64,000 bases of DNA from Lentimicrobiaceae bacterium. Lineage in GTDB: Bacteria; Bacteroidota; Bacteroidia; Bacteroidales; UBA4417. The notes below the pieces were generated by a model. It made no database searches and was not told where the DNA came from. It was given only the letters and a program-made list of their open reading frames with translations. Position 1 is the stretch's first letter, and each line of letters begins with the position of its first letter. The DNA is taken from positions 9,332 through 73,331 of the forward strand of contig JAQVEX010000004.1 in assembly GCA_028697555.1 (NCBI GenBank), read 5' to 3'. A program made the translations under genes and the position numbers. Below are positions 5,035-35,831 of this stretch, piece after piece.

Positions 5035-5214
5035 AGTCGGATAAATTAATTAAATGGGTTTATTATTAATGGGTTTACTATGTTATTTTTTAGTTGTTTT
5101 TTACTTTTAAAATACTGCAACTGTTTTAATTTTAACTAAATACAAAAGTATATTTTTTTTATTTTCAAATGCAAAAAATTATTAAGTTTTTTTTTGGTTT
5201 TTTAGCCGTTGGCT

Positions 5215-6423: not shown

Positions 6424-6446
6424 TAGAGATGAGTTTGTTTACAAAT

Positions 6447-6591
6447 CATAGCCATTAGCTGTTGGCTGTTAGCTATTGGCTATGGTCGTTTGCTAATAGC
6501 CAATGGCTAAAAGCTAAAGGCTAAAAGCCATTAAACCACGTACCACACAACACCGACCACTAACCACCAATCACTATCCACTAATCACTAT
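6447..6591. repeat. Composite heptamer element. Inverted arrays (GCTGTTR/GCTATTG arm against GCTAAAR/GCCAATG arm) form a long imperfect hairpin, followed by 8 units of an ACCACNN C-rich array.
   Basis: Left arm catagccattagctgttggctgttagctattggctatgg, loop tcgtttg, right arm ctaatagccaatggctaaaagctaaaggctaaaagccatt. Then accacgt accacac aacaccg accacta accacca atcacta tccacta atcacta. The block starts 24 nt after the truA stop. Confidence 0.85.
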
Positions 6592-6674
6592 TTCCCATAT
6601 TAACTTTACATTAATTGGTACTTTGTGCTTAAAATTTTAAGAAATAGATTATTTTTGTTTGAAATAAACGCAAT

Positions 6675-7802
6675 ATGGGATTAAAAAAAGGAGATAAGGT
6701 AAGATTTTTGAATACAACCGGTGGAGGAATTATCGTTAAGCAACTCAATAGCTACATGGTTTTGGTTGAAATTGAAGATGGTTTTGAAGTACCCGTCTTA
6801 ATGAACGAAGTTGTGAAAATTGGAGAATCTACACCGGCAAGCCGAATATTTTTGCAGGAAGATGAAAGAAAAGCTCAACGTAATCAGGAAGAGCAACATA
6901 AAGCTGTAAGACAAGATAGTAAAAAACAAGAAACCGCTTGGGAAGTTGAAAAAGATTACACTTTGGAAGATGAACAAACCTACATGAGTATAAAGCCCGA
7001 TAATGACGTGGAAAAGGGAATTTACTTAGGTTGGTTTCCTGTTGATATTGAAAAAATTCAGATAAGCGACGTAGAAATTGTTCTTTTCAATTACACCAAT
7101 TGCGAAATTATTTATTCAATATTTCTGCAAAAAACCAAAAGTGGATTCATTGGTTACGACTACGGCACTATTCCGGCAAACAACTGCCAAGTCATCGACG
7201 TAATAAAAGCCGACAAACTTGATATGTGGCAAAAAGGAGAAGTGCAAATAATTTTCTTTCACGAAAAAACCAAAGCCATTCAAGCTCCGCATTCGGTTAC
7301 TTTTAATTCCAAAATCTCACAAATCACCGATGTTGCTAATTTGCAGGCTTTCCCAATTTACAAACAACAAAAAGGCATAATTCACACTTTGTACAGAACC
7401 GCAAGTGCCGAGGAAAAGCAAAAACTCGTAGAAGAAAGCAAATATGGCGCTGTACTGAAACAAAAAAACAGTTCGGTGTTCGAGATTAGTCCCATTGTCA
7501 ACCAATTCAGAATAGACGACGATACTGCCGAAGTTGACCTGCATATTTCAAAACTGTTGCCCGATTTTTCTAAAATGAAAGCTAAAGATATTCTACAATA
7601 TCAGCTATCTTTTTTCGACAAGGTTTTGTCGAGCGCAATAGCGTACAACTACAAGAGACTCATTGTTATTCACGGGATTGGCAACGGAGTATTAAAAAAT
7701 GCAATTCTTAACAGAGTTAGTGTCAACGGCGATATTGAAGTTAAAGACGCTCCATTTGCCAAGTACGGTTACGGAGCAATTGAATTATTCATAAATTATT
7801 AA
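6675..7802 (+). CDS. Smr (small MutS-related) domain protein with an N-terminal DUF2027-like region
   Basis: 375 aa. The C-terminal ..VDLHISKLLP...LIVIHGIGNGVLKNAI.. segment matches the Smr domain pattern. Confidence 0.7.
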   Translation: MGLKKGDKVRFLNTTGGGIIVKQLNSYMVLVEIEDGFEVPVLMNEVVKIGESTPASRIFLQEDERKAQRNQEEQHKAVRQDSKKQETAWEVEKDYTLEDEQTYMSIKPDNDVEKGIYLGWFPVDIEKIQISDVEIVLFNYTNCEIIYSIFLQKTKSGFIGYDYGTIPANNCQVIDVIKADKLDMWQKGEVQIIFFHEKTKAIQAPHSVTFNSKISQITDVANLQAFPIYKQQKGIIHTLYRTASAEEKQKLVEESKYGAVLKQKNSSVFEISPIVNQFRIDDDTAEVDLHISKLLPDFSKMKAKDILQYQLSFFDKVLSSAIAYNYKRLIVIHGIGNGVLKNAILNRVSVNGDIEVKDAPFAKYGYGAIELFINY

Positions 7803-7805
7803 GCA

Positions 7806-9698
7806 ATGTACAAAAAGACTTGTGTAATTATAATTTCCTTACTGCTAATCTGCTGTTCGCTTGAAATAGCGGCTCAAATACAAAGCCCGGGAAATCCGTT
7901 TTTGTACAATACTCTTAAAACACAAAAACGTTCTATTTCTTGCATAGAAATAGAAACACCCGATATTAAGAAGTTGCAAGAAGAAGATTTATCGGTTCAG
8001 GATTGCATTTTGAAAAAAGACCGTTTGGGGATTGTCTTACCACAAAACACCGATATCAGCAATACAGTTTACAAACACCGCAATGCCAACGGAACGCACT
8101 CGTGGATAATTGCCATAAAAGCCGATAATGCCACAGCCTTAGGTGTTAGTTTGAAATACGATAATTTTCCAAGCGGAAGTAAGTTGTACTGTTTTTCGGA
8201 AGATGGAAATTACATTTATGGAGCTTTTGACTTAGCTCAGTTATCTGACAATGAAATAACAATCAGACCTATACCCGATGAAACCGTTTATATTGAAATC
8301 GACTTTGTAAAAACTCCACCCACAAATGCTACTCTGGTATTGCAAGATGTCTCGTTTTTTTACAAAAACTTGCTGAACGGCGACAGGAACGGCGAATCTG
8401 ACTTTTGCCAAGTAAGTGTAAATTGTAGTGAAGGTAACAACTTTCAGCTTATTAAACGAAGTGTGGTAAAGCTCCTTACTTGTGTTGAAGGAATGTACTA
8501 CTACTGTAGCGGAAGCGTGGTGAACAACACCGCCAACGACTTTATGCCATACATTCTAACTGCCGGACACTGCGGAGCATTAAATAGTCAAACTGTGTTA
8601 TCTCAACTAGATAAAAACAAATGGGTGTTTTATTTCAATTACGAATCCGATTGTAATAGCGATGTTCCGCCAAACTTCGACCAAACAATGGTTGGAATGG
8701 ATATCGTTTCGCAAAGCGACTTTATAGATGATGACGGTTCGGATTTTTTACTCTTAAAACTTAAGCATAGCATTCCCGAAGCCTACAACGTATATTTTTC
8801 CGGTTGGGACAGAACCGAAACGCCATCGCCATACGGCGTTTGCTTGCATCACCCAAAAGGCGATTTTAAAAAAATCTCAACCTACGAACAGCCCTGCACC
8901 AACGATAATTGGAGCGCTACAGCAAATACTCATTGGGGTGTAACTTGGGTTGAAACCCAAAACGGACACGGCGTTACCGAAGGCGGTTCTTCCGGAAGTC
9001 CTTTGTTTAACAACAATAATAAAATTGTTGGAGTTCTTTCAGGTGGAAACTCATCGTGCAGTTCGCCTAACGAAAAAGACTATTTCGGGAAATTTTCGTA
9101 TTCGTGGAAATCCAATGGCAGTAATTCCTACAAGCAACTCGCACCTTGGTTAGACCCGATAAATTCAGGAAACCCAATACTAGACGGCGTGTTCAACTCC
9201 AATCATATCATGCCTTTAATCTCGGTTTCTAATAATATTGTAGCTATAGATAATAGCATCAACTTTTTTGATGTTTCTACCGGAAATCCGACAAGTTGGC
9301 AATGGCACTTCGAAGGTGCTACGCCACAAACATCTACCGAAAAAAATCCTACAAATATTACATACAAGGAACACGGCTCTTTCGATGTAAAATTAGTAGT
9401 TAGCAACGATATCTCAACCGATTCGATTTTGCTCAGAGATTGGATAAAAGTGTATTATCCGTTTTATCCAAACCCAACCGTAAACGGCTACATCAATGGA
9501 ATAGCCGATAACAATTACGACCTGAAAATATTTGCAATAAATGCAAACGGAAGAATAATGAGAGAATGGATTTTCCCCAAAAACTCATTCTCTAATCCGT
9601 TTACCATCAAACTGCCGGAATACAACGGAATGCTGTGGCTTAAAGTTATTTCAAAAAACAATGTTCAGGTTCATAAAATAATTTCAATACAAAAATAA
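7806..9698 (+). CDS. Secreted trypsin-like (S1 family) serine endopeptidase with a PKD-like domain and a T9SS C-terminal sorting domain
   Basis: 630 aa with a signal peptide. LTAGHCG (His) and TEGGSSGSPLF (Ser) motifs. PKD-like segment F.DVSTGNPTSWQW.FEGATP. C-terminal FYPNPT...LKVISKNNVQVHKII looks like a CTD. Confidence 0.8.
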   Translation: MYKKTCVIIISLLLICCSLEIAAQIQSPGNPFLYNTLKTQKRSISCIEIETPDIKKLQEEDLSVQDCILKKDRLGIVLPQNTDISNTVYKHRNANGTHSWIIAIKADNATALGVSLKYDNFPSGSKLYCFSEDGNYIYGAFDLAQLSDNEITIRPIPDETVYIEIDFVKTPPTNATLVLQDVSFFYKNLLNGDRNGESDFCQVSVNCSEGNNFQLIKRSVVKLLTCVEGMYYYCSGSVVNNTANDFMPYILTAGHCGALNSQTVLSQLDKNKWVFYFNYESDCNSDVPPNFDQTMVGMDIVSQSDFIDDDGSDFLLLKLKHSIPEAYNVYFSGWDRTETPSPYGVCLHHPKGDFKKISTYEQPCTNDNWSATANTHWGVTWVETQNGHGVTEGGSSGSPLFNNNNKIVGVLSGGNSSCSSPNEKDYFGKFSYSWKSNGSNSYKQLAPWLDPINSGNPILDGVFNSNHIMPLISVSNNIVAIDNSINFFDVSTGNPTSWQWHFEGATPQTSTEKNPTNITYKEHGSFDVKLVVSNDISTDSILLRDWIKVYYPFYPNPTVNGYINGIADNNYDLKIFAINANGRIMREWIFPKNSFSNPFTIKLPEYNGMLWLKVISKNNVQVHKIISIQK

Positions 9699-9702
9699 AC
9701 TC

Positions 9703-10824
9703 ATGACTGACTCTTTTATATCATCATTAATAGGAAAATCGCATTACTCGTCGGAATTAAAAGATGTTTCGTCCAAAATATTAAACTCGCAACGCATTAC
9801 TAAGTCGGAAGCTGTTTTGTTATACCAAAACTCCGATTTGGCTCTTTTGGGCTCACTTGCAGACCTCAAAAACAAACAAATCAACGGCAACAACGTTTAT
9901 TACAATCGAAATATCCACGTTGAGCCAACCAACATATGTGTACACAATTGCTCGTTTTGCTCGTATTCGCATCATCATAGCACAGCTTTTGAATTATCTG
10001 TCGATGAAATGTTGGAAAAAATCAAACCTGTTTCCGACAATATAACCGAAGTGCATATTACAGGCGCGGTTCACCCCGAAAGAGATATAAACTACTACGC
10101 AAACCTTATAAACGCTGTAAAACAAATTGCTCCAAACGTACATATTAAAGCATTTTCGGCTGTGGAAATAGAATATATGTGCAATAAATCGGGAGTGGGA
10201 TTTGGCGAAGGATTGGAACTTTTGAAGAAAAACGGTTTGGGTTCACTGCCCGGTGGCGGTGCAGAAATTTTAGATGATGAAATAAGAAGCAAAATTTGTT
10301 CACATAAAACAAACTCAAACAATTGGTTGGAAATACACAGACAAGCACACAAAATTGACATTTTTTCCAATGCAACCATACTTTACGGACATATTGAAAA
10401 CGTTAAAGACCGCATTAATCATTTGGGAAAAATAAGAGAACTGCAAGATGAAACCAAAGGTTTTAACGCTATTATTCCGCTAAAATACAAGAGCAAAAAC
10501 AACTCTATGAGCCATTTGGGTGAAGTCAGCTTAGTTGATGATTTAAAAATGTTTGCGATTTCTCGTTTGTTTTTAGACAACGTACCGCATATAAAAGCGT
10601 ATTGGCCCATGTTCGGAAAACAAAACTCCTTGCTGGCTCTTTCGTTTGGAGCCGACGATTTAGACGGAACCGTAAACAATTCGACCCAAATTTATTCGCT
10701 GGCAGGAGCCGAAGATACAAACCCCGATTTCACCGAAGAAGAAATTAAAAAAGCTATTACAGAGGTAGGAAAGACTCCCGTTGAAAGGGATTCATTATAC
10801 AACACAATTAAAAAACACAAATAA
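9703..10824 (+). CDS. Radical SAM enzyme of the MqnE/MqnC/CofH family (futalosine-route menaquinone biosynthesis)
   Basis: 373 aa. Has the CxxxCxxC cluster motif in NIHVEPTNICVHNCSFCSY, and its length and C-terminal pattern are typical of MqnE/MqnC. I cannot separate MqnE from MqnC by eye. Confidence 0.65.
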   Translation: MTDSFISSLIGKSHYSSELKDVSSKILNSQRITKSEAVLLYQNSDLALLGSLADLKNKQINGNNVYYNRNIHVEPTNICVHNCSFCSYSHHHSTAFELSVDEMLEKIKPVSDNITEVHITGAVHPERDINYYANLINAVKQIAPNVHIKAFSAVEIEYMCNKSGVGFGEGLELLKKNGLGSLPGGGAEILDDEIRSKICSHKTNSNNWLEIHRQAHKIDIFSNATILYGHIENVKDRINHLGKIRELQDETKGFNAIIPLKYKSKNNSMSHLGEVSLVDDLKMFAISRLFLDNVPHIKAYWPMFGKQNSLLALSFGADDLDGTVNNSTQIYSLAGAEDTNPDFTEEEIKKAITEVGKTPVERDSLYNTIKKHK

Positions 10825-10828
10825 TAAT

Positions 10829-12985
10829 ATGAAAAAGAAGAAAAACAAAAATGTTGAGAAAAACGCCTTAGCAAATCAGGTGTTTGAAATTTTTGTGCAA
10901 AATAAAGACCGAAAACTAAATTACCGCCAAGTCGCATCGTTGATGCAAATAAGCAGCAAAGACGAAAAAGAGGCTGTTCGTAGCGCAATAGAATTGCTTT
11001 GCAGGCAAAATTCACTCGTAGAAGGAAGTAGAGGCAAATATTACATAAATCCCAAATTGCTTGCAGCTATCGACAAGGCAAATAGCGTTGTCGGCGAGGT
11101 AGAAATGAAATCTAGCGGCAAGGCGTATATAATAAATACCGGACTCGACGAAGACGTATATATTGCTCCCAACAATACCAACAAGGCATTAGACGGCGAC
11201 AAAGTCCGCGTTGAGTTGTTCCCACGTCGCAAAGGCAAAAAGACCGAAGGCGTTATCGTTGAAGTATTGCAAAGAGCTAAAAAACAATTTGTTGGTATTA
11301 TCAGAATTAGCAAACATTTTGCCTTCTTGGTCGCCGATAATATTACCGTAAAACGAGATATATTTATCCCGAAAACAAGTTTGATGGGAGCCAAAAACGG
11401 TCAGAAAGTTGTTGTAGAAATAACCGATTGGCAACCCGAAGCCAACAATCCCGAAGGTAAGGTCGTTAGCGTGTTGGGAAATCCTGGCGATAATAAAGTT
11501 GAAATGCAGGCTATTTTAGCCGACGCCGACTTCCCGCTCTGCTTTTCCGACGAAGCCGAAAAACAAGCCGAAAGTTTTAAATTGGATATTAAAACGGAAC
11601 TTGTTAAGCGAAAAGACTTCAGAGACGTTTGGACTTGCACAATAGACCCCGAAACCGCAAAAGATTTCGACGACGCTCTTTCGATAAAAGCTATTGACAA
11701 CGATACATTCGAAATAGGAATACATATTGCCGACGTTTCGTTTTTTGTAAAACCGGGTACTCCTATCGATAACGAAGCCTACGAAAGAGCTACGTCAGTA
11801 TATATGGTCGATAGAACCATACCTATGCTACCCGAAGCTCTATCAAACAATATGTGCTCACTTGTACCAAACGAAGACAGGCTTTGCTTTTCGGCTGTTT
11901 TTAACATTACAAAAGATGGTAAAATCAAGAAGCATTGGCTTGGCGAAACTGTTATTCGTTCCAACGTCAGATACAATTACGAACAAGTGCAAAACATTAT
12001 TGAAGGTGCAGATAGTGAGTTTAAAGACCAAATTCTTCAACTGTTCAAAATTTCTGAAATACTCAGAGCCGATAGATTTAAAAAGGGTGCAATTAATTTT
12101 AACACACAAGAAGTTGAGTTTGTTCTCGACGAAAATGCCAAACCAATCGAGATAAAAATAAAAGAACAAAAAGAATCTAATTGGCTCATAGAAGAATTTA
12201 TGCTTTTGGCTAACAAAACTGTGGCTAGTCTTATAGGCGAAAAGAGAAGCAACAATCAGAACCCTAAAACCTTTGTTTATAGGGTACACGACGAACCTAA
12301 CGTTGAAAAGTTATCGAATTTTACCGAGTTTCTGAAAAAGTTGGGTTATTCATTCCAAACTAAATCAAAAAGCAATATCACTAAAAGCTTTAATTCTTTG
12401 TTTACCGAAATTGCAGGCAAAGGCGAAGAACGTATGATTGAGAAAATTGCGCTTCGCACCATGTCAAGAGCCGAATACTCAACTTCAAACATCGGACACT
12501 ACGGCTTAGGCTTTAAATATTACACCCACTTTACATCGCCCATTCGTCGCTACCCCGACCTTATGGTTCACCGACTTATAAAATCTTACCTTAAAGGTAA
12601 AAAAAGCGTCGATCAGGAAGAATACGAGCAATATTGCGTACACTGTTCCAAAATGGAAAATAGAGCTCAAAATGCCGAACGCAACAGCGTTAAATATAAG
12701 CAGGTTGAGTATATGTTAGATAAAAAAGGACAAGTTTTTGAAGGCGCAATTTCGGGAGTTAGCAAGTGGGGAATTTTTGTAGAAATTAAAGGCAATAAAT
12801 GCGAAGGTCTTGTGTCTATGCGACTTTTAGATGACGACTACTACTTTTTAGATGAAGATAATTATCAGATTATCGGACAAAGGAACGGAAAAACATACAG
12901 ACTTGGAGACGATATTACAATTAAAGTCATTAATGTTGACTTGCAACGCAGATACTTAGACTTTGACATCGTTGACGACAAATAA
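10829..12985 (+). CDS. rnr: Ribonuclease R
   Basis: RNB catalytic core (DPETAKDFDDALS, HYGLGFKYYTHFTSPIRRYPDL) plus a C-terminal S1 domain. The ATG at 10829 is preferred over the upstream alternative start at 10781, which would overlap the preceding gene. Confidence 0.9.
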   Translation: MKKKKNKNVEKNALANQVFEIFVQNKDRKLNYRQVASLMQISSKDEKEAVRSAIELLCRQNSLVEGSRGKYYINPKLLAAIDKANSVVGEVEMKSSGKAYIINTGLDEDVYIAPNNTNKALDGDKVRVELFPRRKGKKTEGVIVEVLQRAKKQFVGIIRISKHFAFLVADNITVKRDIFIPKTSLMGAKNGQKVVVEITDWQPEANNPEGKVVSVLGNPGDNKVEMQAILADADFPLCFSDEAEKQAESFKLDIKTELVKRKDFRDVWTCTIDPETAKDFDDALSIKAIDNDTFEIGIHIADVSFFVKPGTPIDNEAYERATSVYMVDRTIPMLPEALSNNMCSLVPNEDRLCFSAVFNITKDGKIKKHWLGETVIRSNVRYNYEQVQNIIEGADSEFKDQILQLFKISEILRADRFKKGAINFNTQEVEFVLDENAKPIEIKIKEQKESNWLIEEFMLLANKTVASLIGEKRSNNQNPKTFVYRVHDEPNVEKLSNFTEFLKKLGYSFQTKSKSNITKSFNSLFTEIAGKGEERMIEKIALRTMSRAEYSTSNIGHYGLGFKYYTHFTSPIRRYPDLMVHRLIKSYLKGKKSVDQEEYEQYCVHCSKMENRAQNAERNSVKYKQVEYMLDKKGQVFEGAISGVSKWGIFVEIKGNKCEGLVSMRLLDDDYYFLDEDNYQIIGQRNGKTYRLGDDITIKVINVDLQRRYLDFDIVDDK

Positions 12986-13114
12986 AACAATTAACAATTT
13001 TTTTCTTATAATTAAAGTACTTTTGCATAGAAATTGCAAATAAAAAAAATGAAACTCAATATAACTATTAATTTTTCGACTAATAAACACCTATTAATCA
13101 ACAAACTAAAACAA

Positions 13115-14140
13115 ATGAATATGAAATACTTATTTGTATGCTTAATTGCAATTACTTTTTCAACGGCTTGCCAAAGTAAAGTTAAATCGGATAATATAAA
13201 AACCGAAGATGGAATAACTTTAATAAGCGATACGACCAACATCGAACAACAAAACCAAGTCGGTTACGATAAAGCCGACATTGATAGTAAAACAAACACC
13301 GGCAATAAACCGCCAAAATCAATACCTATAGTCGATTTTTCGCTTGGCGTTCCTACGTTGGTTGGTAATGATAATTCTGAACATCAACTTTTTTTATCAG
13401 AAAACATTAAAGAGGGTGTTAGCTTGGCAAAAAGCGGCGAAACCACAAAAGCTCTTAAACTGTTTAAAAAAGAAGAAAAAGCTAATCCCAAAAACCATTA
13501 TGCTTGGTATTATGCCGCTCTAACTCACTACAGTGGAGGCAATACCGAAGAAGCCATAGAAATTTTAAATGATGCTATAGCTAAGTTTCCTGATACTTGG
13601 CACTTATTTCTTTTGAAAGGTAAAATATATTACGACTTAAAAGAGTACAAAACTGCATTAGAAAATTACGACAAGCTTTTGGAGATATCTCCTAATCATC
13701 GCGAAGGCTTGGAAAATAGAGCAAACATACACTTATACTTAAAAAATTATGAAAAGGCTGCTGCCGACTACGAGAGGTATGATATAAATTACCCTCCAAA
13801 TTCCAAAATGTACTACAACATGGCATATGCACAAGCTCAATTAGGAAGATACGAGGATGCTGAAATGAATTTTACGTATTCAATCCAACATAATAGGAAT
13901 TATTTGTCGGCATACCTCAACAGAGGCAACACATACATGATGCTGAAAGAATATGAAAAAGCAATAGAAGACTATGATTTCGTTATTTCCAACGATGCAA
14001 AACACGTTAATGCTTATTTCAACCGCGGACAAGCAAAACTTATAATTAACTTAGACCCGTGCCCCGATTGGCAAAAGGCTTTTGAACTAGGAAGCGAAGA
14101 TGCTAAAATGATGTTGGATAAATATTGTGATAAGAAGTAG
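13115..14140 (+). CDS. TPR-repeat lipoprotein
   Basis: Lipoprotein-like signal MNMKYLFVCLIAITFSTAC. Several TPR units (..AWYYAALTHY.., ..YYNMAYAQAQLGRYEDA.., ..YLNRGNTYMMLKEYEKAIEDY..). The start was moved to the ATG just before the signal peptide. Confidence 0.75.
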   Translation: MNMKYLFVCLIAITFSTACQSKVKSDNIKTEDGITLISDTTNIEQQNQVGYDKADIDSKTNTGNKPPKSIPIVDFSLGVPTLVGNDNSEHQLFLSENIKEGVSLAKSGETTKALKLFKKEEKANPKNHYAWYYAALTHYSGGNTEEAIEILNDAIAKFPDTWHLFLLKGKIYYDLKEYKTALENYDKLLEISPNHREGLENRANIHLYLKNYEKAAADYERYDINYPPNSKMYYNMAYAQAQLGRYEDAEMNFTYSIQHNRNYLSAYLNRGNTYMMLKEYEKAIEDYDFVISNDAKHVNAYFNRGQAKLIINLDPCPDWQKAFELGSEDAKMMLDKYCDKK

Positions 14141-14154
14141 GTGCATGAAGTTAT

Positions 14155-14227
14155 AGCCGTTAGCTCTTAGCTTTTGGCTATTGGCTTGGTCTAGCCAACG
14201 GCTAAAAGCTAACAGCTAAAAGCCAAG
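14155..14227. repeat. Heptamer inverted-array hairpin (GCTNTTR arm / GCTAAMR arm)
   Basis: agccgttagctcttagcttttggctattggcttgg tc tagccaacggctaaaagctaacagctaaaagccaag. The block starts 15 nt after the stop of the TPR gene. Confidence 0.85.
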
Positions 14228-14276
14228 AAAAGGAATAATATTTGTAGTACAACATCAGTAACAACATATTAAAACC

Positions 14277-14750
14277 ATGGACATATTCTTAATCGTACTC
14301 GGTGCAATATTAATGATTGTAGGTATTTTAGGTAGCGTTTTGCCTATTTTGCCTGGTCCTCCACTTTCGTTTGTAGGTTTGTTGTTACTACAATTTAGCT
14401 CAAAAGCTCCTTTCGATTTAAGATTCTTTATCATCTGGGGAGTTCTTACTGCTATTGTAGTTCTGTTAGATTATCTTGTTCCTATATGGGGTGCTAAAAA
14501 AATTGGCGGTACCAAAGCAGGCTCTCGAGGTGCAACAGCCGGATTAATATTAGGACTGTTTATTCCTCCCTGGGGTTTGATAATAGGACCTTTTATTGGT
14601 GCCTTCATAGGCGAATTTATCAACAGCTCCGACCTTAATATTTCGTTTAAATCAGCTTTAGGCTCTTTTGTGGGATTTTTAGCCGGAACTTTCATGAAAC
14701 TTGCCGTTACTATTGGTATGGCATTCTACTTCGTAAAAGCTCTTTTTTAA
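14277..14750 (+). CDS. DUF456-family small membrane protein
   Basis: 157 aa with four hydrophobic helices and the typical GPPLSFVGLLL / WGAKK.GG(T/S)K pattern. Confidence 0.6.
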   Translation: MDIFLIVLGAILMIVGILGSVLPILPGPPLSFVGLLLLQFSSKAPFDLRFFIIWGVLTAIVVLLDYLVPIWGAKKIGGTKAGSRGATAGLILGLFIPPWGLIIGPFIGAFIGEFINSSDLNISFKSALGSFVGFLAGTFMKLAVTIGMAFYFVKALF

Positions 14751-14847
14751 CATATATTATATATAGATTTTTTCAGATATATCCTTTGAGATGAAAAAAA
14801 GTCTTATTTTTGTAGGAAAATAAATTACTAAACTACATTTATAAATC

Positions 14848-15612
14848 ATGAAAAACTTAACACTAATCTTAACTTTAATTTTTGGTCTCCTATTTATTAA
14901 CTCTTGTACAAATAATTCGGAAGACGAAAAAGGCTCACTTACTATCAAATTTAGCCACTTGATTGATAACAACGAAATTATTTTCGACTCTATTATTTAC
15001 GTTAATGAAGCCGGTAACCGCTACGAAGTCAACGAAATTCAGTATTTCATTTCTGACCTTAGCTTAATTTCAAATTCGGGCGAAAAGCACAATTTAATCA
15101 ACGACCAAAGCATTCACTACATCGACTCCGACATTCCGGAAACAATGCAATGGCTCGCATCCAACGACTTGCCTGTAACCAAATACGACAGTCTCGTCTT
15201 TACCTTCGGCTTATCGGAAGCCAATAACACAAGTTTCAGATTTGTAAATCCGCCCGAACGAGATATGGTATGGCCCGAACTATTAGGAGGTGGCTACCAC
15301 TACATGAAACTCAATTGCAAGTGGTTAGACCCCAATTCTGATAGGAAAAACGCCAATTTCCACTTAGGAATAGCCAAAAAATCTAGCACGGAATTTAAAC
15401 ATTACTACTTTAAAGTAACATTGCCCATAAATCTTAATGCAAAAGCCGATGATTCAAATACTATAACCCTAGTAATGAATGTTCAAAATTGGTTCAAGAA
15501 TCCAAATATTTGGGATTGGAACGTTATTGGAGGAGGCATAATGGATAATCATGATGCAATAAAAATGGGTTGCGAAAACGGACACGACGTATTCAGTATA
15601 AAAGCTAACTAA
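14848..15612 (+). CDS. MbnP-like periplasmic lipoprotein, partner of the downstream di-heme peroxidase
   Basis: 254 aa. Lipobox LFINSC. GGGYHYMKLN segment. The stop lies 2 nt before the peroxidase gene. The family assignment is from memory of MbnP/MbnH pairs and was not searched. Confidence 0.5.
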   Translation: MKNLTLILTLIFGLLFINSCTNNSEDEKGSLTIKFSHLIDNNEIIFDSIIYVNEAGNRYEVNEIQYFISDLSLISNSGEKHNLINDQSIHYIDSDIPETMQWLASNDLPVTKYDSLVFTFGLSEANNTSFRFVNPPERDMVWPELLGGGYHYMKLNCKWLDPNSDRKNANFHLGIAKKSSTEFKHYYFKVTLPINLNAKADDSNTITLVMNVQNWFKNPNIWDWNVIGGGIMDNHDAIKMGCENGHDVFSIKAN

Positions 15613-15614
15613 CA

Positions 15615-16769
15615 ATGAACAAAATAAAAACTCTAAGTCTATTTGTCTTGCTGTTAGGTGTTTTGTTTTCGTGCAAAAAACCACCCGAACCGCATATTAC
15701 AACTCCTTACGAGTTAGAAATACCTCGTTTTTTCCCAACTCGAACAAATATTCCTGTCGATAATCCACTAACAGTCGAAGGTGTTGAATTAGGAAGGTAT
15801 TTGTTTTACGATGGAAGACTTTCGGGAAGAACCCACGCAGACAGCCTGATGAGTTGCGCCAGTTGCCATAAGCAATCAAGGTCGTTTGATGTTGACCCCA
15901 ACCAAATTACGTTTCAAAACGGAAGACCCGTTGGACTTGGCGGAACTCCCACACCACACGCAGTTTTACCGCTCATAAACTTGGTATGGAACGAAAGCGG
16001 ATACATGTGGAACGGTAGTTTTAACAATTCCAACCCCGATAAATACAAAAAAGGTATTGAAGGAATTGTTTATCACACTCTCATCGATCCAAACGAAATC
16101 AACGGCGATACAACAGATATAGTAACACTTATACAAAACACAAGTGGCTACCCCGAACTGTTTGAAAAAGCCTTCGGCTCAAAAATAGTAACCGTAGATG
16201 GAATTTCTAAAGCCATAGCTCAGTTTGTACGAACTCTTATTTCTTACAACTCTAAATTCGATAAATATTTAAGGGGTGAAGTGCAACTTACAACCGATGA
16301 ACTTATGGGTTACGAGCTTTTTATGACCGAAGAAGGTGCAGACTGCTTTCATTGCCACGGTGGTGACGGAAATCCGCTGTTTACAACCAATTTGTTTTAC
16401 AACAACGGAACCGATTCTATCTTCAACGACCCATTCGATAGGTTTTCCGTAACAGGCGTTAGGAGCGATATTGGAGCATACAAAGCTTCAACCCTCAGGA
16501 ATATAGTCCATACGGCTCCGTACATGCACGACGGTCGTTTTAGCACATTGGACGAAGTGATTGAGTTTTACTCAACAGGAATTGTTGTTTCGGAATTTAT
16601 ACATCCGCTAATGCACCACGCAAACAACGGCGGAACTAAACTTACACCTATTGAGAGGCGACAATTAACAGCATTTTTGAATGCTTTAACCGACGAAAGC
16701 TTTATAACTAATCCCGATTTCGGACCACCCACACAACTTCCCGATGGAGCTACTCCTTTGTCAAAGTGA
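15615..16769 (+). CDS. Di-heme cytochrome c peroxidase family protein (MauG/MbnH-like)
   Basis: 384 aa. Two CxxCH heme motifs (CASCH, CFHCH). APYMHDGRF..L..V(I)EFY signature of the CCP/MauG family. Confidence 0.8.
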   Translation: MNKIKTLSLFVLLLGVLFSCKKPPEPHITTPYELEIPRFFPTRTNIPVDNPLTVEGVELGRYLFYDGRLSGRTHADSLMSCASCHKQSRSFDVDPNQITFQNGRPVGLGGTPTPHAVLPLINLVWNESGYMWNGSFNNSNPDKYKKGIEGIVYHTLIDPNEINGDTTDIVTLIQNTSGYPELFEKAFGSKIVTVDGISKAIAQFVRTLISYNSKFDKYLRGEVQLTTDELMGYELFMTEEGADCFHCHGGDGNPLFTTNLFYNNGTDSIFNDPFDRFSVTGVRSDIGAYKASTLRNIVHTAPYMHDGRFSTLDEVIEFYSTGIVVSEFIHPLMHHANNGGTKLTPIERRQLTAFLNALTDESFITNPDFGPPTQLPDGATPLSK

Positions 16770-16770
16770 G

Positions 16771-17004
16771 TGATAGCTATTAGCCGTTAGCCCCCGAAGT
16801 CTCGGGGCTGTTGGCAGATAAAGTTAGAAATTAGAAGTCAGAAGGTAGAAATGGGGAATTCACTATTAATAACCACTATTTCTAATTTCTAATTTTTAAT
16901 TTCTGATTTCTAACTTCTAAAACCCGTAACCCGCAACACCAATCACCAACCATCATTCACCATTCACCATTCACCATTCACCATTCACCAACCACCAATC
17001 ACCG
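16771..17004. repeat. Composite mosaic element: GCTATTA/GCCGTTA units, small GC hairpin CCCCGAAGTCTCGGGG, inverted TTAGAAN arrays forming a hairpin, then 12 in-register ACCCGYA/ATCACCA/TTCACCA heptamers.
   Basis: Read directly. It fills the whole gap between two convergent genes. Both stop codons (TGA at 16767..16769 and TGA on the minus strand at 16999..17001) touch or lie inside the arrays. Confidence 0.9.
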
Positions 17005-18162
17005 TTTGAACGGTTGTGCGTATTTTTCAACATCTTGAAGTGTTATCGTATTGCCTGCCATTATAGATAAACGCTCTACAATGTTTCGCAATTCTCTGAT
17101 ATTTCCGTTGTAATGCAGTTTTTGGAGAGCTTGCACGGCTTCATCAGTTATCTTGGGTACATTTCTACCCTGACTTTCGGCAATAGTTTCTAAAAAGTGG
17201 GCAACCAAAAGCGGAATATCATCTTCGCGCTCGTTAAGAGTCGGGACATGTATCAAAATAACACTTATACGATGATATAAGTCTTCGCGAAAGCGATTTT
17301 CTTCAACTTCTTTCAATAAATTTTTATTGGTAGCCGCAATAACTCTAACATCAACAGGTATTTCCTTCTCGCCTCCCACTCTGGTAATTTTATTTTCTTG
17401 CAAAGCTCTTAAAACTTTAGCCTGAGCCGACAAGCTCATATCTCCGATTTCATCTAAAAAAATAGTTCCTTTATGAGCTTGTTCAAAATCGCCTTTTCGC
17501 TGCTTTACAGCCGAAGTAAAAGCTCCTTTTTCATGTCCGAATAAAACACTTTCAATAAGTTCCGAAGGAATAGCAGCACAGTTAACCTCAACAAAAGGCT
17601 CATCGGCTCTGTTGCTTTTTTCGTGCAACCATCTGGCGACAAGCTCCTTACCTGTACCGCTGGCTCCGGTAATAAGCACACGAGCGTCGGTTGGAGCCAC
17701 ACGCTCAATCATATCTTTTATTTCTTTTATAGACTCCGATTCGCCTATCATCTCGTATTGCTTATTCACCTTGCGCTTAAGCACCTTAGTTTCGTTAACC
17801 AAATTAGTCCTATCCAACGCATTTCGTAGCGATACAAGCAATCTGTTCAAATCTAAAGGCTTTGGAATAAAATCGTAAGCACCTATGTGAATAGCATCCA
17901 TAGCGGTTTCTATAGTCCCGTGTCCGGAAATCATTATAATTGGTGAATCGGTGATTTTCAACAGTTTTTCCAAGACTTCCATTCCGTCAATTTGCGGCAT
18001 TTTTATATCGCACAAAATAACGTCGAAATGCTCTTTCTCAACCATACTAATTGCCATAAGCCCTTCACTTGCTTCCTCAACTTCGTAGTTCTCGTACTCC
18101 AATATATCGCGCAAAGCATTTCTTATAGGAGCCTCATCGTCTATTACTAATATTTTTGTCAT
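16999..18162 (-). CDS. Sigma-54-dependent response regulator (receiver + AAA+ domains) with no recognisable C-terminal DNA-binding domain
   Basis: 387 aa. Receiver domain (ILVIDDE...DVILCDIKMP). Walker A GASGTGKE. GAFTSA loop (a GAFTGA variant). The protein ends about 20 aa after ..GNIRELRN.. Confidence 0.85.
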   Translation of the reverse strand: MTKILVIDDEAPIRNALRDILEYENYEVEEASEGLMAISMVEKEHFDVILCDIKMPQIDGMEVLEKLLKITDSPIIMISGHGTIETAMDAIHIGAYDFIPKPLDLNRLLVSLRNALDRTNLVNETKVLKRKVNKQYEMIGESESIKEIKDMIERVAPTDARVLITGASGTGKELVARWLHEKSNRADEPFVEVNCAAIPSELIESVLFGHEKGAFTSAVKQRKGDFEQAHKGTIFLDEIGDMSLSAQAKVLRALQENKITRVGGEKEIPVDVRVIAATNKNLLKEVEENRFREDLYHRISVILIHVPTLNEREDDIPLLVAHFLETIAESQGRNVPKITDEAVQALQKLHYNGNIRELRNIVERLSIMAGNTITLQDVEKYAQPFKR

Positions 18163-18310
18163 TATATTTTTGTTTGATTTTGTAAAAGTAATGATTTTTA
18201 AACAAAACTGTTCTTAATTTTATACAAATAGTTTCATATAAAACGATTTTTGCTCTAAATATATTTTAAAAATTTGCTATTTATTATATGAGTAACGAAA
18301 TTATCTTAAC

Positions 18311-18341
18311 TTTGCAACAGGATATTATATAATTATTTTTG
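18311..18341 (+). promoter_or_regulatory. Bacteroidota-type promoter candidate: TTTG (-33), 19 nt spacer, TATTTTTG (-7)
   Basis: TTTG at 18311..18314 and TAnnTTTG at 18334..18341, only 9 nt before the clpS ATG at 18351. Confidence 0.45.
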
Positions 18342-18350
18342 TGCGTAATT

Positions 18351-18629
18351 ATGCCTGACCATAATGTAAAAAGAGTCCCAAAACAGGACATTGACGATGA
18401 CACGGGTAACGAGTATAAAATTACTTTGTATAATGATAATATTAACACGTTCGACTACGTTATAGATTGTCTGATGACAATTTGTAATCACACTCACGAA
18501 CAAGCCTCACAGTGCGCAATAATAACGCATATAAAAGGAAAATGTATAGTAAAAAAAGGAGAAAAAGAAGTTTTGGCACGCATGAATAAACAACTTATAA
18601 TAAAAGGTTTAAAATCAGTTCTATCATAA
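18351..18629 (+). CDS. clpS: ATP-dependent Clp protease adaptor ClpS
   Basis: YKITLYNDNINTFDYVIDCL...HE.A matches the ClpS core. The ATG at 18351 is preferred over the GTG at 18339, which sits inside the promoter box. Confidence 0.85.
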   Translation: MPDHNVKRVPKQDIDDDTGNEYKITLYNDNINTFDYVIDCLMTICNHTHEQASQCAIITHIKGKCIVKKGEKEVLARMNKQLIIKGLKSVLS

Positions 18630-21593: not shown

Positions 21594-22053
21594 ATCTTCG
21601 CATAAGTTCGGTAATATCATGCATTAAGCCATCTTTAACTTTGTAAAGTCTTTGGTTTGTCTGCAACGACTTTAAGCCTCCTAGTTCTTGTTTGTAAGAA
21701 CCCAATTTTATATAATCGAAATTCTGTGTTTTAACTTTGTTTAGTTTCTCGCAACCCGAATACCAAGCTGTTTTTATGCACAATTCAGATTGCTTTTTAA
21801 TAAAAACCGATAACTTCTCAACTTCAAACGGATTGGCATCTCCACCCATAAAACATACGCAAGTAATCAAATATCCGTACTTACTCAGCAAATTTAAAAT
21901 CACAGTTTCGGTCAAAACTTCGCCTATATCTAACCATAGCTGCGGACTATGACATCCTTTGCATTTGTGCGGACAGTTCGAAAGATTTATAGCCAATGTA
22001 ACCTCGTCGGGAATTTCCTGAAAAACTATATCATAATCGGTGTACTTAAGCAT
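21592..22053 (-). CDS. nrdG: Anaerobic ribonucleoside-triphosphate reductase activating protein
   Basis: 153 aa. Radical SAM CPHKCKGC motif. Overlaps the nrdD stop by 8 nt. Confidence 0.85.
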   Translation of the reverse strand: MLKYTDYDIVFQEIPDEVTLAINLSNCPHKCKGCHSPQLWLDIGEVLTETVILNLLSKYGYLITCVCFMGGDANPFEVEKLSVFIKKQSELCIKTAWYSGCEKLNKVKTQNFDYIKLGSYKQELGGLKSLQTNQRLYKVKDGLMHDITELMRR

Positions 22054-24181
22054 ATTGTTCTATTTTTTCCTCAAGTTGAACTTTTTGGTTGTCGCAGTAG
22101 TACCTCTGTGCAGCCTCAACCTGACGCGCTGCCGAGAAATTACTAATACGTTTCATGTAACCTATCACGCGAGTTAGGTAGTCAATATTATCGGAACCGC
22201 ACTTTGGACACTTTTTAAGATACCTTTTGTCAATAGCGTTACAATCGTTGCATACCGTATTTGGAATATTGAAGGTAAAATAGTTGCATCCTTCAATAGC
22301 TGCCACACATAGCAATTGTCGGTATTGCTTTTTCGATAAATGTTCTTCCAAATTCATATGAAGTGCCGACCCTCCCGTAAGATGTTTTATATACCTTGAA
22401 CCATGCAAGCGAAACTTATCTATAACATTTAGCGACTCGTCTTCCACAATATAAAAATAACTGTTGTAGCAACTGCGTGGGACGAAGTAACCGTCTTCTC
22501 TGTCCCATTTTGCATGCTTAACTCCAACATTTTCAGCCGGTATCATTTCGCAGTTGAACATTGTTTTAGAAGTACGGTACTTTTTATTGTATCTTTCTAC
22601 CAATCCCAATACGTCTTGCACAAATTTCAGATAGTTGCTGTTATCTGATATTTGTATGCCTTGGAATTCGGCTGCTTCAACTATTCCGTTTACGCCAATT
22701 GTAAGATATTGCCTATCCAAATTGATGTAGCCGGCATCAAAAAGCGGCAGCATCTTTTTATCCTTAAACATGATAAGGTTTTCGTTGTAAGCTATTTGTA
22801 CTTTATGTACTAAATTGACAACTTTTTCGAGAAAATCTAAATATGGAATCCCAACTTTATCTGCATATTGCACACAACGATTGATATTAATAGTCAGCAC
22901 ACTTTTCGATCCTGTTGAAATTCCTCCCGCACCTAAGGTGTAGCTAAATCCGTTATCCTGAATTTCGTTACGCAACCTGCAACAGCTTGATAATGAATCA
23001 GCATTATCGCTCATATATGTAAAAAACGAGTGCCCTTCTGCGTACATTTCTGCAGTGAAATCGCCGTATTCTTCGTCTAACACATCGCCGTCTTTTGTGA
23101 GCAAAGCCATTGTCTCGACCGGAAATGTCAGCACCGATCTGGTTCTTTCTTTATTAAACCATTTTATAAACCTTTTTTGCAACCAGTTTAGCGAATCCCA
23201 GTGCGGTTTGCTTCCGTCGGGAAAAACAAAGTCGCGGAACAAACTTTCAAAATAGTACTTATCGTAATAAGAAATATTCCAAAAAACTGCCTGAAAATTG
23301 CGTGCTCCTGTTGGTTGATTTATGGAATAAATAATCTGCTCGAAAAAATCGCAAATAACTTTATCTAATGTTCTTCTGCGCTTAGATAAATCTACAACCT
23401 CATCGACGCGTTTGTAATAATCTATACCGTATTCCAATCCTATAAAGTAATTCATGTACATTAGAAACTCGGGAGTTGCACAAGCTCCGCTCAACATGCT
23501 TGAAACCATAAACACCATGTTTATGAAACCTCCGCTAAACGATTTTAAATTTGTTGGCGGTGTTGAATTGCCTCCTATCCCAACTGTTCCGTTCAATAGC
23601 CAAGGATACATTGTTATGCTTGCACAATAATTTGCCAAACTTGTCTCGTCGTTTTTGTATATAAAATGCTCATTTAACATTTTAATATACTCATCAGCTA
23701 ACTCCTTTCCGTACATTTCTTTAATTCTATCGGTTAACAGTTTTCTGTTGAGTTTGATAAAATTATTTTTAGGGATTTCGCCTATAAGTGTTGCTATGTT
23801 TTTGTTTTCAACATTGGCATTAGCATCGAACTTACTTCCTGTGGCTGCGTTTTGAGCATTGCAGTAGTCCATCAGAAAATTCATTTTATCGCGAATTTCT
23901 CGCGTTTCTGCATGTTCTTTTCTGTACAGCATATACGATTTTGCTACTGCAAAATATTTTTCCGCCATCAAAGCCACTTCCACGTTGTTTTGAATTTCTT
24001 CAACAGTCATTTCGTTTGTTATTTGCAGGCGTGAAAGAATATTCGTCATATCCTCATCGGTAGCAAATGAGCCGACTGATAAAAATGCTTTGCGGATTGC
24101 ATTTTTGATTTTTTCTATAGAAAACGGCACCTTTTTGCCGTTTCGCTTAATTACTGTTCTGATTGCACCATCAATTTCCAT
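22046..24181 (-). CDS. nrdD: Anaerobic ribonucleoside-triphosphate reductase (class III)
   Basis: 711 aa. N-terminal ATP-cone. C-terminal Zn-ribbon CNDC..CPKCG and a glycyl-radical region ..RVIGYM... Confidence 0.9.
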   Translation of the reverse strand: MEIDGAIRTVIKRNGKKVPFSIEKIKNAIRKAFLSVGSFATDEDMTNILSRLQITNEMTVEEIQNNVEVALMAEKYFAVAKSYMLYRKEHAETREIRDKMNFLMDYCNAQNAATGSKFDANANVENKNIATLIGEIPKNNFIKLNRKLLTDRIKEMYGKELADEYIKMLNEHFIYKNDETSLANYCASITMYPWLLNGTVGIGGNSTPPTNLKSFSGGFINMVFMVSSMLSGACATPEFLMYMNYFIGLEYGIDYYKRVDEVVDLSKRRRTLDKVICDFFEQIIYSINQPTGARNFQAVFWNISYYDKYYFESLFRDFVFPDGSKPHWDSLNWLQKRFIKWFNKERTRSVLTFPVETMALLTKDGDVLDEEYGDFTAEMYAEGHSFFTYMSDNADSLSSCCRLRNEIQDNGFSYTLGAGGISTGSKSVLTININRCVQYADKVGIPYLDFLEKVVNLVHKVQIAYNENLIMFKDKKMLPLFDAGYINLDRQYLTIGVNGIVEAAEFQGIQISDNSNYLKFVQDVLGLVERYNKKYRTSKTMFNCEMIPAENVGVKHAKWDREDGYFVPRSCYNSYFYIVEDESLNVIDKFRLHGSRYIKHLTGGSALHMNLEEHLSKKQYRQLLCVAAIEGCNYFTFNIPNTVCNDCNAIDKRYLKKCPKCGSDNIDYLTRVIGYMKRISNFSAARQVEAAQRYYCDNQKVQLEEKIEQYA

Positions 24182-24249: not shown

Positions 24250-24445
24250 TTTTCTTCTTAGCCTTTTCTCCCGAAAGCTACGAATTACATGTCGAAAATG
24301 ATAGGTCTTCCGGCTTGTTACATTTTAAAACGCCTTCCCAGAAAAAATTAAATCCAGTGGCTTATACTATTTTAAAACCTATTTGTAACTTACGGCTGCG
24401 GGTACAGCTACCGATTTTAACGGTATTCCCTTAGCATCATTTTGA
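24250..24445 (-). ncRNA. Cobalamin (B12) riboswitch in the nrdDG leader
   Basis: The minus strand reads ..AUGAUGCUAAGGGAAUACCGUUAAAAUCGGUAGCUGUACCCGCAGCCGUAAG...AAGCCACUGG...CUGGGAAGGCG...AAGCCGGAAGACCUAUCAU... It contains the GGGAA/CCCGC core, the GCCACUG..GGGAAGGC pair and the B12 box AGCCGGAAGACC. P1 is AUGAU (24440..24436) pairing with AUCAU (24302..24298). A TAATTTTG -7 box lies at 24451..24458. Confidence 0.8.
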
Positions 24446-24596
24446 CTCAACAAAATTAAGGATTAAATGTGTGCTTTTGGTTTTTAAGCAAATGTTTTAT
24501 CAACAAAGTAATTAACATATGCGTTCAATCTTTTGCGATTCTAACATTTTGGTTAGTCCGAAAATTTCACTCAATTGCAAAACTACCTTATTCTAG

Positions 24597-35830: not shown

Positions 35831-35831
35831 A

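Follow-up and report, generated by a model that had tools for sequence, protein, structure and literature searches.

Heptanucleotide arrays in polar palindromic modules overwrite gene ends in a Lentimicrobiaceae genome

Introduction

In a 64,000-nucleotide (nt) stretch of DNA from a Lentimicrobiaceae bacterium (C61:9332-73331 of the analysed genome, G000; hereafter the window, whose coordinates we use for its loci), the spacer at 16767-17004 between two convergent genes is filled with tandem arrays of 7-nt units, and one of the two genes ends inside them. Among the long simple repeats of bacteria, those with heptanucleotide units are the commonest. The question that this spacer raises is whether such arrays are there to end genes. 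An earlier note on this DNA had answered along those lines, proposing that the arrays abut or supply stop codons, that their G-rich strand follows the gene that ends there, that they would stop translation in any frame, and that they form hairpins at 3' ends. We analyzed the arrays of the whole genome and of its relatives, and we describe here the anatomy of the modules that they form, the polarity of these modules, their overwriting of coding ends, and their turnover. The explanation that we favor, with somewhat better than even confidence, is that the arrays are a lineage-amplified, fast-evolving heptanucleotide lattice built into polar palindromic modules and that the supply of stop codons is a side effect.

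Results

Period-7 arrays lie between genes

Genome G000 comprises 2.33 Mb in 88 contigs (36% G+C, 97.9% complete). We detected arrays by scoring self-matches at each lag, with a filter that removed 1- to 3-nt repeats. At period 7 this yielded 289 arrays covering 12,564 bp (the strict set), compared with 0 to 5 at each of periods 4 to 6, 8 to 13, and 15; the same scoring gave 192 arrays at period 14. With a laxer cutoff there were 400 period-7 arrays versus 0 to 10 at periods 5, 6, and 8 to 11. A close relative, G007, is a Lentimicrobiaceae metagenome-assembled genome (MAG) that is 91% complete and whose TilS is 94% identical to the TilS of G000. Its analyzed portion (1.10 Mb) held 119 period-7 arrays versus 0 to 3 at periods 5, 6, 8, and 9.

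Genes came from our own dicodon-scored open reading frame (ORF) caller, which called 1880, and the 1840 with scores of at least 20 were used. Although 88% of the genome is coding, only 743 of the 12,564 array bp fall within called genes. Entirely noncoding arrays number 246 of 289, a further 36 are partly noncoding, and 7 lie inside called ORFs (4 in the 5' part of a longest-ORF call and 3 in weak short ORFs). Arrays occur in 73 of 222 convergent spacers, 29 of 211 divergent spacers, and 78 of 1319 co-directional spacers, and among convergent spacers whose residual length is 50 nt or more, about 50% are occupied. We sorted the units by pattern into six families, GGTGRNN, CGKGKTR, GAGTTNN, TTRGCNN, GCAATNA, and TTAGAAN, and we call the G/T-rich reading of a unit forward and its C/A-rich complement reverse.

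Modules have a fixed, context-independent polarity

The proposal that the G-rich strand reads in the sense of the terminating gene was borne out across the genome. Among arrays within 10 nt of a stop codon, read in the sense of the gene, 53 are G-rich, 4 are C-rich, and 20 are mixed; at 11 to 30 nt the counts are 23, 3, and 19, and beyond 100 nt from the stop the bias is reversed (31 C-rich versus 12 G-rich). That the orientation follows the gene was not borne out, however. In each of the 69 spacers that hold both orientations, the forward arm stands 5' to its reverse complement; they comprise 22 co-directional and 13 divergent spacers in addition to 29 convergent ones and 5 at contig edges. 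Same-family inverted pairs run forward then reverse 41 times and in the other order 0 times (15:0 for the low-skew TTRGCNN family alone), and clusters holding both kinds of array run G-rich then C-rich 15 times and never the opposite way.

The same order is seen when spacers are read on the plus strand without regard to pairing. In convergent spacers G-rich arrays stand on the left 27 times and on the right 4 times, and C-rich arrays 5 and 27 times; in divergent spacers the counts are 10 and 2 for G-rich arrays and 4 and 9 for C-rich arrays. The left/right bias is also significant in co-directional spacers (Fisher's test, p = 0.003 and 0.02), where 63 forward units are sense and 69 antisense; between two minus-strand genes, G-rich arrays stand 10 left and 9 right. 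In 262 of 318 arrays, among them 47 of the 57 that lie between two gene starts, the distance to an ORF is shorter from the forward 5' end than from the 3' end. One divergent spacer, C86:12734-13284, carries two serial modules, each of them forward first by eye, and the window array at 5215-5324, also in a divergent spacer, shows that the polarity is present where no gene ends. Because a module is palindromic, it gives the same forward-first reading on both strands. We conclude that the orientation rule is an intrinsic, context-independent polarity of the module and does not follow the gene.

The families are also ordered within an arm. Reading from the outside inward, GGTGRNN lies outside GAGTTNN in 11 of 11 cases and CGKGKTR lies outside GAGTTNN in 7 of 8, and 9 of 12 transitions from GGTGRNN to CGKGKTR keep the 7-nt register. 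In G007, 17 of 17 spacers are forward first, and all 16 arrays within 10 nt of a stop codon are forward in the sense of the gene.

Arrays supply stop codons as a by-product

The window cases from which the stop-codon proposal arose mostly hold: five of the six named gene ends are reached by period-7 arrays (Table 1). The tilS gene ends ...VVSD* within GGTGGTT AGTGATT AG. The stop of the Zn-ribbon gene (35832-36800, minus strand) touches the array at 35799-35832, and the minus-strand ORF at 48226-50280 has its stop and four codons in TTGCTAA units at 48223-48240, the end reading GCAATTA GCAATTAG. The weaker, sixth case is the MauG-like gene, whose TGA had been taken for the first unit of the next array. 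About three degenerate TTAGCNN units do follow it, but Tandem Repeats Finder (TRF) reported no array directly after this TGA (16767).

Genome-wide, where the pattern is much stronger than in the window, the arrays do supply stop codons and last residues. In the 400-array set, an array holds or touches the stop of 44 of 1840 genes and lies within 10 nt of the stop in 77, compared with contact at 4 and proximity within 10 nt at 9 of 173 gene-start flanks, starts being approximate; the stricter set gave the same picture at both gene ends and gene starts. The stops of the 44 abutting genes are TAA 4 times, TAG 20 times, and TGA 20 times, while all other genes use TAA 1238 times (69%), TAG 389 times, and TGA 169 times. 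The use of TAG or TGA in 40 of 44 abutting genes, in place of the usual TAA, indicates that the stops there are array sequence. The deepest overlap between an array and a gene is 23 nt. The arithmetic of the earlier note, by which three consecutive units place a stop in all three frames, is correct and matches this value: the limit of about 21 to 23 nt arises because 7 is not a multiple of 3, so that stops fall in all frames.

The arrays are not attracted to stop codons. As a placement null, we slid the array block of each spacer uniformly, allowing it to enter a 3' end by up to 21 nt and keeping it at least 30 nt off starts; this null is conditional on spacer lengths, which are themselves set by the arrays. 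Contacts with a stop (gap of 0 or less) numbered 40 against 51.6 ± 4.9 expected, and gaps of up to 10 nt numbered 71 against 73 ± 5.1, so that stop proximity did not exceed uniform placement at either distance. Arrays touch stops because modules fill the spacers.

Nor is the stop content of the units special, as had been suggested from the observation that most of them carry TGA, TAG, or TAA. At least one reading has stops in all three frames in 196 of 289 arrays, and about 73% would be expected for random heptamers of intergenic composition. Among the 165 skewed arrays, all three frames are closed in 111 G-rich readings and 37 C-rich readings, where random heptamers would give about 50% per reading. 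In arrays lying 1 to 30 nt past a stop, all sense frames are blocked in 37 of 78, which is the random expectation (about 50%). G-rich arrays at this distance whose G-rich reading lacks stops (CGGGTTG type) are still G-rich in the sense of the gene in 15 of 15 cases, 11:0 where neither strand has a stop and 4:0 where only the C-rich strand has one. Since stop-less units are oriented like the others, the orientation rule is independent of stops. The stop content of the units is thus incidental, and the supply of stops looks like a tolerated by-product.

Arrays overwrite gene ends and turn over between close relatives

Between G000 and G007 there are 670 reciprocal best hits with at least 70% identity (median, 94.7%). 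Of 548 syntenic spacers, 40 have arrays in both genomes, 27 in G000 only, 5 in G007 only, and 476 in neither; at 14 of the 27 G000-only spacers weaker arrays persist in G007. Eight spacer alignments were inspected. Four showed a whole module opposite an empty site, two an expansion within a module, and two trivial AT-rich repeats. The 157-nt module at C7:26624-26945, for example, faces an empty site in G007 between conserved flanks. No target-site duplication was seen at the empty and filled sites of these two-genome alignments. Where both genomes carry a module, the unit families and copy numbers often differ although the flanking genes are 91 to 99% identical.

A comparison of orthologous gene ends had been proposed as a check in the earlier note. 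Of 22 genes that adjoin an array in G000 or G007, 5 share their last four residues with the ortholog, compared with 422 of 648 other genes (Fisher p = 1.2e-4). TilS ends in QCSVVSD* in G000 and in QCSIKN* in G007, and the junction carries a different array family in each; other pairs are ...ELVISHF* and ...EFVVNLR*, ...LAFSR* and ...LAISC*, and ...SCRPGVVNGEW* and ...SCRPE*. In the ORF at 48226-50280, divergence from G007 begins immediately past the common GCAATTAG; the C terminus of the endonuclease/exonuclease/phosphatase (EEP) protein, FAFGDW*, is identical in G007. TilS orthologs of lower identity terminate close to this position as well, which indicates that the arrays replace the last few codons and add no long tails. 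The arrays therefore overwrite native gene ends, and C termini and stop codons differ between genomes that are about 94% identical.

Heptamer arrays are broader in distribution than this pair. Three consecutive GGTGRNN units give 284 matches in G000, 162 in G007, and 0 to 22 in each of the other 29 sampled relatives. The corresponding TTRGCNN pattern matches 753 times in G000, and of 151 genomes sampled from throughout the order, 46 contain it. About 12 of the order's genomes have at least 30 matches (up to 154), roughly equally on both strands, and the reversed control pattern gave near-zero matches in most of them. In two genomes of other families, 6 of 6 close pairs among the listed places are forward first, and in loci from four of the order's genomes every array next to the end of an ORF of at least 100 amino acids (5 of 5) is forward in its sense. 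The recurrence of TTRGCNN arrays in many of the order's families means that the phenomenon extends beyond a single MAG.

The two array-rich genomes, G000 and G007, are both about 2.3 Mb, and 17 other sampled members of the same GTDB genus, with TilS identities of 36 to 44%, are 2.9 to 5.8 Mb, so that the repeat burst coincides with a small genome.

Array spacers fold strongly but are not enriched in canonical terminators

The hairpins that had been placed at 3' ends are supported by folding. Array-bearing spacers of 120 to 350 nt fold more strongly than array-free ones (median z, -3.7 versus -1.8; p = 3e-4; 45 of 118 and 45 of 326 spacers sampled, respectively). On its plus strand, the spacer at 16767-17004 forms a long TTAGAAA/TTTCTAA hairpin and a GC hairpin (z = -6.06). 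The lattice at 16921-17003, which contains the stop of the sigma-54 regulator gene (TGA, 16999-17001), is left as an unpaired C-rich array of ~85 nt. The minus strand of the same spacer folds no better than its shuffles (z = -1.46). Canonical hairpins followed by T's are not enriched: the window holds no more of these terminators than its shuffles do (11 versus 11.6 and 8 versus 14.6), and no array hairpin in it is followed by a T-run.

The GC hairpin GCCCCGAAGTCTCGGGGC in this spacer is a member of a dispersed family. Its CCCGAAGTTTCGGG-like core has 83 copies in the genome, of which 81 are noncoding and 49 lie within 100 nt of an array. A second core of ~75 nt resembles a miniature inverted-repeat transposable element (MITE), with inverted ends CATTTTCGG...CCGAAAATG. 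It occurs at 5521-5576 (minus strand) in the window and at about 16 other places in G000; BLAST returned 19 rows at 91 to 100% identity, two of them only 31 nt long, and nearly all are intergenic. In every copy with array flanks its orientation is that of the flanking heptamers, with 11 plus copies in forward arrays and 6 minus copies in reverse arrays, flanks being read by eye.

Candidate machineries and structures were considered in turn. Y1 (IS200/RAYT-type) transposase genes are present in G000, and a Y1 enzyme as the mobilizer was rejected, since these genes are equally present in array-poor relatives and are not associated with arrays: within 1.5 kb of the two full-length Y1 genes of G000 there are no arrays and no CCCGAAGTTTCGGG-like hairpin core. 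A reverse-transcriptase or telomerase-like origin of the G-strand polarity was set aside because no RVT_1 match was found in G000. A G-quadruplex reading was rejected for most arrays, as 13 of 153 GGTGRNN or CGKGKTR arrays match the motif (G3+ N1-7)x3 G3+.

Two further small hairpins were noticed. The Y1 transposase gene at C66:3748-4092 is flanked by a different hairpin repeat, GGTGCGTAGCACC-like, with 24 copies in the genome, which may be that gene's own repetitive extragenic palindrome (REP) family. A terminator-like hairpin, GCTCGCTTTTGCAAAGCGAGC, has 30 copies in G000, some followed by GGGTTTT. At several gene ends, such as those of C86|2 and C33|22, it lies downstream and distal to the arrays, which would place the arrays there inside the 3' untranslated region.

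Arrays and other features of the window

Window arrays were listed with TRF, domains were assigned with Pfam, and RNA families were assigned with Rfam (Table 1). Pfam supports the gene labels di-haem cytochrome c peroxidase/MauG, sigma-54 response regulator, TilS, Zn_ribbon_9, and EEP. It gives no family for the ORF at 48226-50280, and the label of peptidase that this ORF had carried is unsupported.

Table 1. Array modules of the window and the genes that they adjoin
Feature	Position	Strand	Basis or remark
Forward GGTGATG then GAGTTAG arrays, divergent spacer, beside minus-strand gene start	5215-5324	+	
TTAGCTG/GGCTAAA hairpin, then C-rich reverse array, co-directional spacer	6449-6591	+	
TTAGCNN forward arm and NNGCTAA reverse arm, downstream of TPR gene	14153-14226	+	TRF 14193-14226
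MauG/di-haem cytochrome c peroxidase-like gene	15615-16769	+	PF03150; TGA stop 16767-16769
About 3 degenerate TTAGCNN units around small GC hairpin GCCCCGAAGTCTCGGGGC (~16790-16808)	16770-16816	+	Sequence, fold
Forward arm, TTAGAAA-type units	16821-16852	+	TRF; pairs with 16878-16920 in minimum free energy fold
Reverse arm, TTTCTAA units, complement of 16821-16852, giving long hairpin	16878-16920	+	TRF, fold
G-rich lattice in sense of sigma-54 regulator gene: GGTGAAT/GGTGATT then CGGGTTA units	16921-17003	-	TRF 16937-17003, sequence
Sigma-54-dependent response regulator gene, stop within array	16999-18162	-	PF00158, PF00072
tilS downstream module: GGTGATT, CGGGTTG, GCTTTTA/TAACAGC hairpin, TTCTAAT units, in gene-sense order	34108-34306	-	
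tilS	34291-35622	-	Stop and ~4 codons inside array 34273-34306
Zn-ribbon gene downstream module: CGTGTTG/CGTGGTG units, then TTAGCNN hairpin	35695-35832	-	TRF, PF02591
TTGGCTA array, hairpin GTCCCGAAGTTTCGGGAC, CGGGTTG and GCAATTA units, all forward, divergent spacer	45696-45810	+	
EEP gene	46610-47668	+	TGA and last 3 codons in GGTGATT/GGTGATG units (TRF 47657-47702)
EEP module: GGTGATT/GGTGATG, then CGTGGTG and CGGGTTG units, then hairpin GTCCCGAAGTTTCGGGAC	47657-47735	+	
Module of ORF 48226-50280: GCAATTA units (last 4 codons and TAG), then GGTTGGT	48175-48240	-	
TTAGCNN forward and reverse arms (hairpin) between two minus-strand genes	60032-60115	+	

Contigs of four DNA runs compared with window positions 5000-18500 mostly stop at arrays (6482, 16811, and 16961 are examples), and numerous chimeric joints connect different arrays. 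These contigs revealed no array copy-number variants, a negative that, given such breaks, does not bear on slippage within the population. One contig of 3,873 nt from run X3 spans 11213-15085, including the array at 14193-14226, with zero differences. Across 5653-6482, in a tRNA pseudouridine synthase gene, 35 of 830 positions differ in contigs of runs X3 and X5; the neighboring pieces in these runs show 0 to 2 differences, and run X4 has the same substitutions across the segment. This looks like a recombined or replaced segment with array-bearing spacers at its bounds.

In Rfam the sole match in the window is a cobalamin riboswitch (RF00174, 75.7 bits; 24283-24456, minus strand) upstream of the ORF at 22046-24181 (minus strand), and the arrays match no curated RNA family. 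Two genes contain tandem repeats of other kinds. A 93-nt (31-codon) repeat of 2.2 to 2.8 copies lies at 60515-60774 within the ORF for a DUF6600 protein (60199-61866, minus strand). In-frame repeats of 9, 12, and 24 nt lie near the 5' end of the Zn-ribbon gene (36592-36784), where a unit such as CTTTGGTTG x8.3 gives a repetitive N-terminal region.

Discussion

The account that we consider probable, though well short of secure, would run as follows. All the unit families can be related to TTRNNNN and would represent one lattice, assembled into palindromic modules that are centered on small GC hairpins, each with a G/T-rich forward arm 5' and its C/A-rich reverse complement 3'. The lattice would change by slippage of units and by drift of the unit sequence along it, and whole modules are gained or lost. 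As modules fill promoter-free intergenic space, they lie chiefly downstream of genes, most of all where two genes converge. Where the edge of a module reaches a coding end, it overwrites the last few codons and the native TAA, and the frame then closes no more than about 21 to 23 nt into the forward arm, at its first in-frame TGA or TAG. A gene that runs into a module meets the stop-bearing forward arm first, and the invasion would for that reason be tolerated. The supply of stops and the impression that orientation follows the gene would then be by-products of module polarity and purifying selection, and not the arrays' raison d'être. The module hairpins might in addition aid the formation of 3' ends.

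We think it unlikely that the arrays are instead selected 3'-end devices, that is, all-frame translational stops with hairpins that end or stabilize the transcript, oriented for the terminating gene. The 53 G-rich against 4 C-rich arrays beside stops would suit such a device, but the identical polarity of 13 of 13 divergent spacers and the 15:0 orientation of stop-less units would not. It could likewise claim the array-encoded stops and last codons of 44 genes, but the distance of arrays to stops is no shorter than under uniform placement, and those just past a stop block all sense frames at the chance rate (37 of 78). The strong structure of array spacers, with the plus strand at 16767-17004 as its clearest case, is countered by hairpins that lack a T-run and by a minus-strand fold of that same spacer at shuffle level. 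The occupancy of about half of the longer convergent spacers, and the smaller number of canonical terminators at array-bearing convergent ends, have to be set beside the presence or absence of modules between genomes of ~94% protein identity. The enrichment in convergent spacers and the fewer canonical terminators would also suit a strand-symmetric transcription insulator, a reading that we rate as very improbable. Under it, a transcript would read the G-rich arm, a hairpin, and then a C-rich, Rho-loading (rut-like) array, and read-through would be halted before it became antisense to the neighboring gene; the polarity would be a functional requirement and the array stops a tolerated side effect. 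Rho prefers C-rich, G-poor, unstructured RNA. G000 encodes Rho, the C-rich array at 16767-17004 is unpaired in the fold, and module polarity is the same from both sides; where both arms belong to one family, however, the C-rich arm is paired, and the coming and going of modules between close relatives speaks against insulators as it does against 3'-end devices.

That the modules are nonautonomous mobile elements, resembling MITEs or REPINs (inverted REP pairs) with heptamer arrays for arms, is a possibility that we entertain with some doubt. The polarity would then be inherited from a founder or would stem from hairpin-based mobilization of single strands, and the gene-end positions would be tolerated insertions. 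This view concerns how modules spread and is compatible with the lattice explanation. Whole modules are present or absent between conserved flanks, as in the 157-nt example, but no target-site duplication was seen at such sites, and in a comparison of two genomes the pattern fits insertion and deletion alike. The conserved hairpin core with its 83 copies, the MITE-like core that is co-oriented with its flanking heptamers, and TTRGCNN arrays, about equally numerous on both strands, in 46 of 151 genomes across the order all point to dispersal. Copy numbers and units, however, differ at nearly every orthologous locus, and slippage alone could suffice for that; the Y1 transposase genes that might have served as mobilizers are without flanking arrays or the hairpin core and are equally common in array-poor relatives.

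Several points weigh against the lattice explanation that we favor. Among spacers of 50 to 100 nt of residual length, 23 of 40 convergent ones are occupied, compared with 9 of 192 co-directional and 2 of 34 divergent ones. Canonical terminators are rarer at convergent ends with arrays (16 of 170) than at those without (36 of 164; p = 0.002), a difference that is not seen in co-directional spacers (12 of 92 with arrays versus 53 of 520 without). Convergent enrichment and fewer terminators fit a selected 3'-end function, and they fit equally well insertion into the only promoter-free spacers. Our dicodon-based ORF calls make stop positions reliable and start positions approximate, 1.10 Mb of the ~2.3 Mb of G007 was compared, and the two genomes are kin and hence not independent replicates. 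The modules may be of common descent.

Because it is independent of context, the polarity restricts the possible mechanisms to an intrinsic property of module formation or movement, or to an effect on any transcript that crosses a module. Should the improbable insulator reading be right, the forward-then-reverse order would be required for function. Universal stop signals under selection would have been a new regulatory device, which the data do not support. Repeat-rewritten C termini and stop codons matter in any case for annotation and for the comparison of gene ends.

The modules share features with several known systems. Cyanobacterial short tandemly repeated repetitive (STRR) sequences are tandem 7-nt units, intergenic and hypervariable, and small dispersed repeats in Nostoc were reportedly described by Elhai and colleagues in 2008. 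Unlike the STRR sequences, the present arrays belong to a member of the Bacteroidota (TilS 94% identical to that of a Lentimicrobiaceae MAG; sigma-54 activator present) and not to a heterocystous cyanobacterium. Like REPs, bacterial interspersed mosaic elements, and REPINs, the modules are dispersed extragenic palindromes with enrichment at 3' ends and between convergent genes, hairpins, a fixed polarity of inverted pairs, and strain variation; unlike them, they have arms that are heptamer arrays of variable length and not one palindromic unit of 20 to 40 nt, and no REP-associated tyrosine transposase (RAYT, Y1) gene is flanked by arrays here. Unlike intrinsic (Rho-independent) terminators, the array hairpins of the window are not directly followed by a T-run.

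Mrazek (2007), as cited in two later papers (PMC4679880, PMC4692102), found that heptanucleotides dominate long simple-sequence repeats (LSSRs) and put forward a slippage hypothesis. Like heptanucleotide LSSRs, the present arrays run beyond chance and, with units that are not a multiple of 3, lie largely outside coding sequence. MacGregor (2015) described direct TAACTGA repeats, whose phylogenetic spread is sporadic, in marine Beggiatoaceae, some Cyanobacteria, and five Bacteroidetes (PMC4679880). In the passages on these repeats, forward copies stop all three frames, so that overlap with ORF ends is at most 18 nt (13 such ORFs); long mixed heptamer arrays occur in a few Bacteroidetes spacers and are absent from close relatives; and in Beggiatoaceae the repeats adjoin start codons, just upstream (PMC4679880). 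The arrays of G000 are likewise intergenic tandem heptamers of sporadic spread inside which ORFs end. They differ in that 0 of 289 array consensuses match TAACTGA in any rotation or complement, in that only 9 of 173 start flanks (starts being approximate) have an array within 10 nt, and in their palindromic module architecture, which does not appear in those same passages (PMC4679880).

The closest parallel that we found is with the G-rich heptamers GGGAATC of Xanthomonas and GGGGAYT of Nostoc, which Rehm et al. (2015) reported to be overrepresented in noncoding DNA (PMC4692102). [quoted passage not shown] They also vary in length and sequence between close relatives such as Xcc and Xac, with no function identified there (PMC4692102). 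Sense placement near stops (53:4), an ORF-proximal 5' side (262 of 318), and convergent inverted pairs (41:0 within families; 69 of 69 spacers) are common to these repeats and ours. The differences from what those parts describe are that six unit families are here chained in register into multifamily lattices, that a G-quadruplex motif of four G3+ tracts occurs in 13 of 153 arrays, and that the host is a Bacteroidota MAG in which the polarity is free of exceptions at the threshold used (69 of 69). A literature search on heptamer repeats in Lentimicrobiaceae and Bacteroidetes, judged by titles and the opening lines of abstracts, returned nothing on this lineage. Both this kind of element and the rule for its position have already been published for other phyla. 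What is new is the lineage of the host, the occurrence of the arrays throughout its order, the multifamily lattice kept in register within palindromic modules, the exception-free polarity, the low G-quadruplex potential, and the rewriting of C termini and stop codons by arrays between genomes that are ~94% identical.

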